Shown: positions 42,712 through 44,898 of the stretch, piece by piece | How the letters are laid out: each line of letters opens with the position of its first letter | Numbering within the stretch: position 1 is the first letter of the stretch | Source: an uncultured Clostridia bacterium | Lineage (GTDB): Bacteria > Bacillota > Clostridia > TANB77 > CAG-508 | DNA length: 64,000 nucleotides | NCBI GenBank assembly: GCA_910589185.1 | Contig: CAJUSU010000004.1 | Location: 10,195 to 74,194 of the forward strand | Direction: 5' to 3' | Program-made: the position numbers and the translations under genes | Notes under the pieces: generated by a model | Seen by the model: the letters and a program-made list of their open reading frames with translations, nothing else | Database searches by the model: none | What the model was told of the DNA's origin: nothing

Positions 42712-43206
42712 TTAGTCAATATTATCAGAGAAAGGAATTATATCATTTTTTCTAACAGATTCAATATAAAATATTTCCTTATCTTCTTCAGTCCTACTTT
42801 TTAGCTTTTTATTATAGTGATAACTTTCTAGTATAGATATCTTATTTTCTCTTTTCCAGATTTTATCAGAAACAAAATCTGTTATTTCATTAAAAATCCT
42901 ATTTACTTCAGTGTTATTTTCAGTAGGTGTTGAAATACTCATTATGAAATGTCGAAAGAGTTCTAATAGTATTCCTTTTGCATATTTTTCATTTGCAATT
43001 ATCAAATTTATAAATTCATTTTGGTCTTCTTCCCTTAAATCAGTAAAGTGATAAGCATTGCTTCTAAAGATTTTTAAATGCAACTCACAAAATTTTAGAA
43101 AAAACTCTTTCTTTAATTTTCCCATCTTTTCTATTTTCTTATTTATAAAAATCGTAAGTATAGAAACTACAATAGGATATATTATATATAAAATAATATC
43201 TTTCAT
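42712..43206 (-). CDS. Hypothetical protein with an N-terminal TM anchor (164 aa)
   Basis: ORF with an N-terminal hydrophobic helix (IILYIIYPIVVSILTIFI); no recognizable domain. Confidence 0.45.
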   Translation of the reverse strand: MKDIILYIIYPIVVSILTIFINKKIEKMGKLKKEFFLKFCELHLKIFRSNAYHFTDLREEDQNEFINLIIANEKYAKGILLELFRHFIMSISTPTENNTEVNRIFNEITDFVSDKIWKRENKISILESYHYNKKLKSRTEEDKEIFYIESVRKNDIIPFSDNID

Positions 43207-43400
43207 TAATGTGTCCTCCTAAATAATTTATTTGACTCATGTTGAATTATATTATAGATTAATATAGAGAACAAGAGTAAAATATTAAGACGAAATGTAA
43301 TAATACTAAAAAATATCTTGACATGATTACTTCTTGTGATAAAATATAAATGTAAAATTAGCTACATAATTGAATATATTATATTAAGGGAGGGGTTTGC

Positions 43401-43919
43401 ATGAGCAAGATAAATCAAAATATAGAAGAACTTACTTCTAGTATACTTTTAAATAACGATATGTATAAAATCCCAGTAGATGTAATAAAGATAGCAAATG
43501 CTAATGATATAAAAGTATATGAAGGAGATTTAGATAAAAAAGTATCAGGAGCCATTAGATATAATAAGACTGAAAACAAGTTTGATATTCTAATAAATAA
43601 AAATGATGCAAAAGTTAGACAGAGATTTACTGTAGCACATGAATTGGGACATTATTTTTTACATCAAGAATTTTTAAAAAGAGAAGAAGTTCATATAGAC
43701 ATTATGTATAGAACCGTAGAAAAAAATAAAAATGAAATTGAAATAGAGGCAGAAAAAGCAAGAGAAAGAGAAGTAGATTATTTTGCGGGGGCACTACTTA
43801 TGAATAAAATGCTTTTAGAAAAAATTCGTAATGAAAATACTATAGACGAATTAGCACAAATATTTGATGTTTCAGTTTCAGCAATGACAGTAAGATTAGA
43901 CATACTAGGCTTATTATGA
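43401..43919 (+). CDS. ImmA/IrrE-family (COG2856) zinc metallopeptidase, no fused HTH
   Basis: HEXXH motif in the typical ImmA context (RQRFTVAHELGHYFLH) and the conserved N-terminal region (IPVDVIKIAN..GIKV). RBS AGGGAGGGG. Confidence 0.75.
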   Translation: MSKINQNIEELTSSILLNNDMYKIPVDVIKIANANDIKVYEGDLDKKVSGAIRYNKTENKFDILINKNDAKVRQRFTVAHELGHYFLHQEFLKREEVHIDIMYRTVEKNKNEIEIEAEKAREREVDYFAGALLMNKMLLEKIRNENTIDELAQIFDVSVSAMTVRLDILGLL

Positions 43920-44407
43920 GCAAGAAATACCCTGCAAAAGGAACAGAAGAAAATAAATATCAAATTGTAATGAAACTTTTTGATAAGTCAGAAGAAGTAT
44001 CAAAAATAGAAAAAGAACCAACAAAACAGATAGATGAAGTTTCAAAGAAATGGGATATGAATGACAAGATATTAGAGTTGTTTGCAAACAATATTGAAAA
44101 AGACCAAAAACTGAAAGAAAAATATGCAATAATTCTAATTATTATATTGGCAATACAATTAGTAGCCTTAATAGTAATATTCATTTTAAAAGGATGTGGA
44201 GTATTAAATTATTCAGATTCTACATTTAATTTATTTATTACGGGAGGAATTGCAGAAGTATTTGTACTAGTAAGAGTAATTGTTAAATATTTATTTAAAG
44301 ATAATTTGACAAATGCTTTAAACATAATTCTGAAAAACAATAATCCCATTAAATATAAAGATTTTAAAAATAATAAAGCATCTAGTAACATCTTGAAAAA
44401 TAAATGA
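43916..44407 (+). CDS. Small two-TM membrane protein translationally coupled to the ImmA-like peptidase
   Basis: ATGA start/stop overlap with the upstream gene. Charged coiled N-terminal ~70 aa, then two hydrophobic helices (AIILIIILAIQLVALIVIFIL; ITGGIAEVFVLVRVIV). Confidence 0.5.
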   Translation: MSKKYPAKGTEENKYQIVMKLFDKSEEVSKIEKEPTKQIDEVSKKWDMNDKILELFANNIEKDQKLKEKYAIILIIILAIQLVALIVIFILKGCGVLNYSDSTFNLFITGGIAEVFVLVRVIVKYLFKDNLTNALNIILKNNNPIKYKDFKNNKASSNILKNK

Positions 44408-44435
44408 TACAAGAAACATTATTTATTTATAATTT

Positions 44436-44462
44436 GACTAGCTTTTCATAGCTAGTTTTTTA
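44436..44462 (+). terminator. Rho-independent terminator
   Basis: ACTAGC ttttcata GCTAGT followed by TTTTTT. Confidence 0.5.
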
Positions 44463-44780
44463 ATTATTGAAAATAAAATTCTAAAATATCTCACTTATTT
44501 CAACATTAAGCAGTAAAAAAATTCTAGTCGATTTTGTGTTTTAAGAAATATTATATCTGTACGAAAAAAGAGATAGTTAAAACTATCTCAAATTTGATGA
44601 ATATTTATATATGCATATCTATTATCCTCTTCTGATAGATTAAAATCAGAATAACAAATAAAAAAGTAATGCAATAAGTAATGCAATAGCAGAAGTTTTT
44701 TATAAATATGCAGAATATGAGAAGAAAGTTTAATTGCTTAAAAATGCAGTAAAATCAACATGTAGCGAGTTGTAAAATAT

Positions 44781-44808
44781 AAGGAGAGTTTTTTGAAAAA
44801 CTCTCCTT
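44781..44808. terminator. Perfect palindromic hairpin, terminator for tRNA-Leu
   Basis: AAGGAGAG ttttttgaaaaa CTCTCCTT immediately 3' of the tRNA (minus strand). Confidence 0.6.
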
Positions 44809-44810
44809 AA

Positions 44811-44898
44811 TGGTGCAGATGGCCGGAATCGAACCGGCACGGTTTATTCAACCGCAGGATTTTAAGTCCTGTGCGTCTGCCAGTTCCGCCACATCTGC
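44811..44898 (-). tRNA. tRNA-Leu (anticodon UAA), type II with long variable arm, encoded CCA
   Basis: Reverse complement reads GCAGATGTGGCGGAACTGGCAGACGC...CAGGACTtaaAATCCTG (anticodon loop CTTAAAA)...long variable arm...GGTTCGATTCCGGCCATCTGCACCA. Confidence 0.85.

Follow-up and report, generated by a model that had tools for sequence, protein, structure and literature searches.

Introduction

The canonical form of RosmerTA, a two-gene toxin–antitoxin system, is reportedly that of Millman et al. 2022. An ImmA-protease antitoxin hub (node D25) within the RosmerTA systems was delineated by Ernits et al. 2023 (PMC10440598), who tested the pair of Gordonia phage Kita formed by RmrA(D25) (YP_009301393.1) and RmrT(D5) (YP_009301394.1). 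The C-terminal part of the Kita toxin is localised to the membrane, its expression rapidly depolarises and permeabilises Escherichia coli, and the Kita operon protects against some BASEL myoviruses (PMC10440598). Here we examine a gene pair of the same layout in a stretch of 64,000 nucleotides from an uncultured Clostridia bacterium (GenBank assembly GCA_910589185.1, contig CAJUSU010000004.1, positions 10,195 to 74,194 of the forward strand), referred to as the window, in which the gene for a Peptidase_M78 protein overlaps the gene for a small protein with two transmembrane (TM) helices, the 2-TM protein. We consider it fairly probable that the pair is a phage-derived RosmerTA-type module of the sub-type RmrA(D25)–RmrT(D5), serving as a toxin–antitoxin or abortive-infection unit in which a membrane toxin is neutralised by its M78 partner.

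Results

Relationship to the RosmerTA pair of phage Kita

The two genes, in window coordinates, are as follows.

43401–43919, + strand: RmrA-like antitoxin candidate, a single-domain M78 protein (ImmA/IrrE/CapP fold) without a helix-turn-helix (HTH) domain, 172 amino acids, HELGH at 43638–43652
43916–44407, + strand: RmrT(D5)-like toxin candidate, 163 amino acids, TM1 at nucleotides 44123–44194, TM2 at nucleotides 44225–44293

The 172-residue protein matches Pfam Peptidase_M78 over the whole domain (E 3.9e-18), carries the motif VAHELGHYFLH and gave no significant HTH match in Pfam, in agreement with the initial annotation of the window, which had called it a COG2856/M78 peptidase lacking the HTH. 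That annotation had also regarded the lack as unusual, a view which does not hold, given that the M78 proteins of Kita (178 residues), E. coli (162), mycobacteriophage Che9c (169) and Gordonia phage WelcomeAyanna (166) are all single-domain. Comparison with Kita RmrA(D25) by BLASTP gave 32% identity over residues 24–171 (E 3e-19), and 358 homologues of the window protein were recovered. Among PADLOC models the best match was capP (1.2e-30), confined to model positions 3–150 of 242; the RmrA models matched at up to 7e-17, over the peptidase core only (e.g., 138–293 of 380). The AlphaFold2 model, with a predicted local distance difference test (pLDDT) score of 79, is nearest in the PDB to CapP 7T5T (Foldseek E 5.6e-7) and PprI/IrrE.

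The 163-residue protein has a charged N-terminal segment of about 65 residues, then hydrophobic segments at residues ~70–93 and ~104–126 according to hydropathy; the family alignment shows an invariant Glu114 in TM2, followed by an invariant KYLFKDN motif. Its 276 close homologues are all 139–209 residues long (mostly 155–175) and have uncultured Clostridium/Clostridia metagenome-assembled genomes as their named hosts. A profile search of 1.84 billion representatives returned 387 clusters of 2-TM proteins at E ≤ 1e-3. Members of this superfamily share a core in which a D..LK..YA motif precedes TM1, Gln and Glu are conserved in TM1 and TM2, respectively, the loop contains Gly, and KYLF completes the core. 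The probability of a match to the Clostridia-only profile is 99.6% (E 2e-23) for the proteobacterial clade and 97.9% for the E. coli protein. The family was not found in Pfam or PADLOC; in PHROGs the window protein matches phrog_5346 (2.7e-14). AlphaFold2 gave a helical hairpin of low confidence (pLDDT 61), for which Foldseek returned nothing below E 0.5 in BFVD. A distant member of the superfamily, P0356 (187 residues), has an N-terminus resembling the C-terminal end of M78 proteins (ELAKLFKVSSEAMGYRLNS) with a weak Peptidase_M78 match, which would reflect a fusion or else an M78–toxin junction that is frameshifted or mis-called.

Identity as an effector of CBASS (cyclic oligonucleotide-based antiphage signalling system) was considered and is not supported. 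The Pfam S_4TM family of CBASS TM effectors has a cut-off of 26.9 bits, and 8 of 31 members reached 13–16 bits over some 38 residues; the PADLOC '2TM effector' gave just two marginal matches (E ~0.006–0.0075, one member each) among 57 superfamily members. These matches are short and sub-threshold, and they are probably compositional.

Searches with tblastn of the window and E. coli-type 2-TM proteins against GenBank phages gave no match, and the link to the Gordonia phages was reached only via a GC-rich representative together with profile comparison. Aligned by hhalign, the profile of the whole 2-TM superfamily (A4) matched Kita RmrT alone with a probability of 94.3% (E 1e-7) and a score of 44.8. 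Controls scored 12.3 ± 2.4 for 60 local shuffles (maximum 21.2), 17.2 for the reversed sequence and 9.7–14.5 for eight unrelated small membrane proteins. Against a profile of the small Kita RmrT family (A7), which is thin since three Kita RmrT homologues were found, the superfamily profile gave 97.8% (E 7.6e-13). The Kita genes share a 4-nucleotide overlap and have the tail genes to one side and the integrase to the other; phage WelcomeAyanna carries a similar pair. The homology proposed for the 2-TM protein and Kita RmrT is thus remote; what supports it is the broad profile, the conserved register of the motifs, the homology of the partners and a gene arrangement identical in both. The Rosmer-type toxin–antitoxin or abortive-infection character put forward in the initial annotation is backed by this homology to RmrA(D25)/RmrT(D5), and the further idea of an undescribed pair falls with it, the homologous Kita pair having already been tested experimentally (PMC10440598).

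Conservation of the two-gene arrangement

An M78 gene lies directly 5' of the 2-TM gene in all 56 loci, comprising 27 distinct pairs with the window included. The pairs span 53–100% identity, and the genes overlap by either 4 nucleotides (ATGA) or 1 nucleotide (TAGTG/TAATG). Distant members from IMG/VR, with G+C contents of 0.37–0.55, have an HExxH-containing M78 gene, with a product of 162–170 residues, directly 5' in 15 of the 15 loci that include the upstream region; in one of these (L074) a 106-residue open reading frame (ORF) is all of the M78 gene that is readable. E. coli prophages and Gordonia phages show this order and overlap as well, and across the family the HTH-less M78 product measures some 160–180 residues. 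Since the same arrangement recurs in all 56 loci and in 15/15 distant viral loci, it is not due to chance, and the co-occurrence of peptidase and 2-TM protein that the initial annotation made a point to be checked is found in every locus recovered. Both genes are under purifying selection, with a median pairwise ratio of non-synonymous to synonymous substitution rates (dN/dS) of 0.10–0.20 for the M78 gene and 0.14–0.30 for the 2-TM gene, and their divergences are correlated (Pearson 0.68).

A clade of M78 partners without the zinc site

Nine of the 27 distinct M78 partners (L001, L002, L007, L036, L045, L046, L047, L049 and L052) read AEELG[YF]YILY where the others read AHELGH[YF]FLH. In this clade (e.g., L001 5516–6001) both zinc-binding His are lost and a third conserved His is replaced by Tyr, with the catalytic Glu and a downstream E...YFAGALL motif retained; the Phe variants cannot stand in for the second zinc-binding His. 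The proteins still match Peptidase_M78, come from many independent samples and partner the toxin variants P0103 and P0113, which are among those most frequently recovered from gut metagenomes. They also keep the overlap with the toxin gene and show the lowest dN/dS in the family (0.10). The window protein itself has an intact HELGH. The finding appears to be new.

That an abundant clade deprived of the zinc ligands stays both coupled and constrained points to neutralisation by binding as opposed to proteolysis, and, as far as sequence can tell, it argues that the conserved role of the M78 partner is not proteolytic. Whether the conclusion extends to the whole family is a more tentative matter: it is conceivable, though we would not count on it, that the M78 'peptidase' of this toxin–antitoxin family does not act as a protease. 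Were neutralisation to occur by binding, the peptidase fold would serve as a toxin-binding or sensor scaffold, and the catalytic site kept elsewhere, the window included, would serve another end, for example the release of the toxin upon detection or cleavage of a phage protein. The view of how RosmerTA-type systems are triggered would change accordingly. The clade represents a natural experiment on the need for proteolysis.

Locations in phages and in Escherichia coli

In phages of Clostridia the pair is found at two positions. One is 3' of the endolysin at the prophage end, beside accessory genes such as a HicB-like antitoxin, and in circularly permuted viral contigs the pair is followed by a recombinase and an S24 LexA-like repressor. 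The other is the early region, between cro-like and replication genes. A moron is a self-contained accessory gene unit of a temperate phage that has its own promoter and terminator. The occurrence at two different phage positions therefore identifies the cassette as a moron-type unit of temperate phages, outside any fixed phage module.

Several genes near the pair were noted in these phages. An XRE-HTH gene often lies a few hundred bp 3' of the pair on either strand and either is fused to a Spo0E-like (sporulation phosphatase-like) gene or has one after it, as at L009 6600–6923, L024 4835–5083, L028 6716–7048, L029 6821–7385, L046–L048 ~8488–8790 and L053/L054 ~8529–8843; the association is not universal. 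A HicB-like antitoxin gene stands just 5' of the pair at L029 4570–4962, L002 4514–4906, L035 4564–4953 and L044 494–883, and mycobacteriophage Che9c has a full HicAB (L087 1647–2299) at the equivalent place. A single phage hotspot thus appears to collect toxin–antitoxin modules in unrelated hosts.

A P2-like phage (L086 2468–3644) and Che9c (gp32/gp33, L087 2417–3312, behind its lysis genes) also have HTH-less M78 genes of this sub-family, in both cases followed by other small membrane proteins. Compared with the 2-TM profile by hhalign, these membrane partners scored at background. The sequences suggest a swapping of toxins around one antitoxin type, and varied toxins combined with one type of antitoxin is the behaviour of the ImmA/Rosmer hub (PMC10440598).

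The E. coli pair, WP_000224749.1 and WP_001138663.1, is present in 519 of 5426 complete genomes (about 10%), where it is annotated as 'ImmA/IrrE family metallo-endopeptidase' and 'hypothetical protein'; a literature search by the E. coli protein accessions gave no match. Its location in E. coli SK1144 is a lambdoid prophage, where Q and the replication genes flank it and the phage genes run on the opposite strand. Beside the pair are genes for a 231-residue hypothetical protein, with a weak match to PADLOC RTasTM (DRT-associated TM; 1.7e-5), and for an LprI-family lysozyme inhibitor (L083 10567–11262, minus strand, and 12454–13377). This stretch of the prophage may be a defence/accessory hotspot.

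A strain-variable insert between hup and tRNA-Leu

Looking up the exact HU protein in public assemblies yielded ten contexts (L013–L022) with near-identical flanks. The pair and the 164-residue ORF described below occur together in three of them (L013, L016 and L022), as in the window, and the pair genes are intact and identical in these independent assemblies. Four (L015, L018, L020 and L021) have the 164-residue gene and lack the pair, and L014/L019 and L017 hold other cargo at the hup/tRNA-Leu site. Strains that differ in presence of the pair are 96–99.9% identical in the flanks. The initial annotation had seen an insertion hotspot at the tRNA and proposed a comparison of presence and absence in neighbouring genomes; the site is indeed hypervariable, and the pair varies between near-identical strains. 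The elements of the insert are these.

43290–44772, no strand: inserted cassette segment, 1.48 kb, made up of the promoter, both genes, the terminator and 365 bp of non-coding tail; missing from the empty site of sister strains
43277–43289, no strand: left copy of a 12–13-bp imperfect direct repeat, GTAAAATATTAAG, from comparison of the junctions with the single copy in L015
44773–44784, no strand: right copy of the direct repeat, GTAAAATATAAG(G), directly before the tRNA terminator hairpin
43318–43345, + strand: near-consensus sigma-70 promoter, TTGACA-16-TAAAAT with extended −10 TG, 11/12 matches in a promoter scan, inside the insert
43386–43395, + strand: strong ribosome-binding site, AAGGGAGGGG, read from the sequence and conserved in the alignment
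44436–44457, + strand: intrinsic terminator-like hairpin with T-run, directly 3' of the 2-TM gene

The borders follow from blastn against the empty site in L015, in which window 42201–43289 corresponds to L015 4850–5938 and window 44774–45400 to L015 5929–6555; the empty site has one copy of the repeat. The closest phage copies (L023, L043 and L050) are homologous from 43288, the left edge of the insert, to the stop codon of the 2-TM gene. In the phage copies the −35 and −10 elements 5' of the M78 gene are partly conserved, TTGA and several −10 positions being invariant. The tail (44408–44772) has no relative among the fetched loci apart from a patch of 48–60 bp: window 44656–44715 is 83–85% identical to L001 7449–7496 and L002 7445–7503, near the end of an unrelated pair-carrying prophage. 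The pair is a self-contained, strain-variable insert with its own promoter and terminator, and the cassette as it occurs here is a 1.48-kb orphan chromosomal insert of phage derivation, which some strains carry at the hup/tRNA-Leu hotspot.

Close relatives differ in the cargo of the interval from hup to tRNA-Leu (window 42640–44810). This is the 164-residue gene only in L015, a ~590-bp insert that includes a 61-residue ORF and has an 11-bp duplication of the 3' end of the tRNA at its flanks in L020/L021, a Mob_Pre element in L018, an element with an integrase and several XRE genes in L014/L019, and an FGE-sulfatase-like gene with an HTH gene in L017.

Surroundings of the insert

The remaining features of the locus are the following.

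42352–42630: hup (HU), Pfam 4.5e-37
42712–43206, − strand: single-TM protein, 164 amino acids, independent of the cassette
44811–44898, − strand: tRNA-Leu(UAA), found with Rfam, hotspot neighbour outside the cassette
45385–45921: inorganic pyrophosphatase (ppa)

The three ORFs that the initial annotation placed in this region are confirmed, as are the positions of the ATGA overlap, HELGH, the pair of TM helices and tRNA-Leu(UAA). The same annotation had also reported the absence of an integrase, which is borne out: neither a prophage nor an integrase lies near the pair in the window, its neighbours being housekeeping genes on the plus strand. There is no HTH gene and no defence operon in the interval from hup to tRNA-Leu. 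The tRNA, which was the sole match of the Rfam scan, has its 3' end towards the islet. The G+C content is 0.21–0.23 over 42.6–44.8 kb compared to ~0.30 in the flanks. A 76-residue ORF at 45158–45388, which overlaps the ppa start by 4 nucleotides, has no family match and is called 5' of ppa in all relatives examined.

The divergent 164-residue protein, with one N-terminal hydrophobic segment (residues ~3–22) and no family match in Pfam, PADLOC, PHROGs or NCBIfam, had been suggested as a third component. This is ruled out because the gene is found in the sister strains lacking the pair (L015, L018, L020 and L021; 93–100% identical) and was not found in any phage locus bearing the pair: the one occurs without the other in both directions.

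Discussion

Based on the collective evidence, the pair is best understood as an extension of the RosmerTA type represented by phage Kita. By analogy with the Kita toxin, the 163-residue protein would insert into the cytoplasmic membrane via its two helices and, if left unrestrained, would oligomerise to form a pore and so collapse the membrane potential, the invariant Glu of TM2, the Gln of TM1 and the KYLF juxtamembrane helix being candidate elements of the pore or its gating. The 172-residue M78-fold protein, synthesised before the toxin and, owing to the ATGA overlap, at a fixed ratio to it, would neutralise the toxin, most likely by direct binding in preference to cleavage. Phage infection could then upset the balance of antitoxin and toxin, leading to cell death or arrest and, as a consequence, to protection of the lysogen population. 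As a side effect, the module would be hard to lose.

A number of points weigh against this interpretation. Toxicity, neutralisation and defence are extrapolated to the window pair from the Kita homologue, with which the 163-residue protein shares ~25% identity over ~75 residues. The relationship weakens when the narrow profile is used: the Clostridia-only profile (A1) matches the profile of the Kita RmrT family with a probability of 84% (E 7e-6) and the single Kita RmrT with 6%. For Kita itself, RmrA(D25) counteracts the toxin incompletely and AlphaFold gave no reliable toxin–antitoxin complex (PMC10440598). The window M78 protein has no HTH for autoregulation, unlike canonical RmrA. A PADLOC search, as proposed in the initial annotation, gave a divided answer, in that the M78 protein matches capP and RmrA models and the 163-residue protein matches no family at E ≤ 1 and no RmrT model; because the toxin is without a model match and the RmrA models cover the peptidase core only, standard Rosmer detection would probably miss the pair.

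Of the other explanations, the one that survives best, unlikely as we hold it to be, is superinfection exclusion (Sie), with a non-toxic membrane protein that blocks incoming phage DNA and an M78 protein that matures or regulates it. A small membrane protein expressed from a prophage, encoded between the endolysin and the attachment site or integrase under its own promoter, occupies the classic position of lysogenic conversion and exclusion genes. The Kita homologue, however, is on its own acutely toxic and pore-forming (PMC10440598). To be strictly coupled in translation to a cytoplasmic partner is a trait of toxin–antitoxin systems, typically, and not of known Sie proteins, and the pair is also located in the early lytic region of other phages.

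Slightly less credible still is a switch of the ImmA anti-repressor type, in which the M78 protein cleaves an XRE/CI-type repressor, either that of the phage or that of a neighbouring HTH gene, and the membrane protein acts as sensor or anchor that controls the timing, for example of prophage induction on membrane stress. The fold is shared with three proteins that cleave HTH repressors, namely ImmA, IrrE and CapP, and many Clostridia phage copies have the XRE-HTH gene 100–400 bp 3' of the pair, sometimes with the Spo0E-like gene. Yet the nine partners without zinc-binding His, including copies beside the HTH–Spo0E gene, remain constrained and paired, and the phages bearing the pair have LexA-like S24 repressors that are self-cleaving, with their operon on the other strand. 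Moreover, the window and E. coli copies have no adjacent HTH gene, and the orphan cassette persists with no phage to induce. A role of the 2-TM protein as a holin- or antiholin-like accessory in lysis timing, with the window copy a decaying, functionless prophage remnant, is very improbable: the frequent position immediately 3' of the endolysin, the two-TM topology with charged ends and a marginal NCBIfam BlyA-holin match (E 0.043, far below the cut-off) speak for it, but more than 200 bp separate lysin and pair, the pair has its own promoter and is found also in early regions and, in E. coli, on the opposite strand, the phage loci with an annotated holin already carry their own, against which the family profile scores at hhalign background (9.7–12), and the window genes are intact and identical in L013, L016 and L022.

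If the RosmerTA-type interpretation is correct, a type of phage defence or toxin–antitoxin system that has been tested experimentally yet is obscure in its mechanism is far wider in distribution than the one Gordonia phage example, extending to prophages of gut Clostridia and to about 10% of the complete E. coli genomes. The matches to hidden Markov models of PADLOC-DB v2.0 suggest a gap in detection, such copies being missed by standard tools. The E. coli copy offers a tractable host for deciding on the need for proteolysis. In the genome studied here, the cassette is a small accessory element that varies between strains, lies at a hotspot next to a tRNA and likely affects phage sensitivity and the stability of the locus.

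Comparison with known systems

With canonical RosmerTA, the window pair has in common the two-gene structure that combines a Zn-peptidase-domain antitoxin with a toxin of an otherwise unknown family. The PADLOC RmrA proteins differ in being 357–400 residues long, with an N-terminal HTH and a C-terminal extension, so that the window protein aligns to ~138–293 only, and the RmrT models do not match the window 2-TM protein. CapP, which functions with CapH in CBASS and other defence operons, is the best match of the window M78 protein in both sequence and structure (Thauera CapP, 7T5T). It has an extra C-terminal region (7T5T chain 278–291 residues, window 172) and turns on a defence operon together with CapH, an HTH repressor encoded beside it; the window has neither CapH nor such an operon. 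The ImmR/ImmA systems of ICEBs1 and the phage anti-repressors likewise involve a stand-alone M78 protein of ~170 residues on a mobile element. The ImmA gene, however, is located beside its substrate repressor and an integrase; the window has no ImmR-like partner and no integrase, the partner of the window type is a membrane protein, and an abundant partner clade is without the catalytic zinc site.

A resemblance of another kind exists to PanA–PanT, of which PanT(D11) served as the mechanistic comparator for Kita RmrT (PMC10440598). PanT toxins (e.g., PanT(D11) of Bartonella choladocola) are small, their TM helices preceded by a soluble N-terminal segment, and are neutralised by a promiscuous partner encoded next to them. 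The antitoxin fold is Panacea (DUF4065) and not M78, and the likeness to PanT toxins noted here is one of layout.

The Kita pair remains the closest relative. Differences exist in the toxin, which in the window has 163 residues, a charged N-terminus of greater length and a tail rich in Lys and Asn, compared to 119 residues in Kita, and in the host, the window being from Clostridia and not Actinobacteria and its cassette an orphan chromosomal insert without a phage. Shared by the two are an HTH-less single-domain M78 antitoxin of 172 (window) and 178 (Kita) residues, encoded first, with the small membrane protein directly 3' across a 4-nucleotide ATGA overlap; a toxin core made up of a pre-TM D/Q motif, TM1, loop, TM2 with conserved Glu, and an ...LF(K)D motif; and the character of a phage-borne module, located between structural or lysis genes and the integrase.

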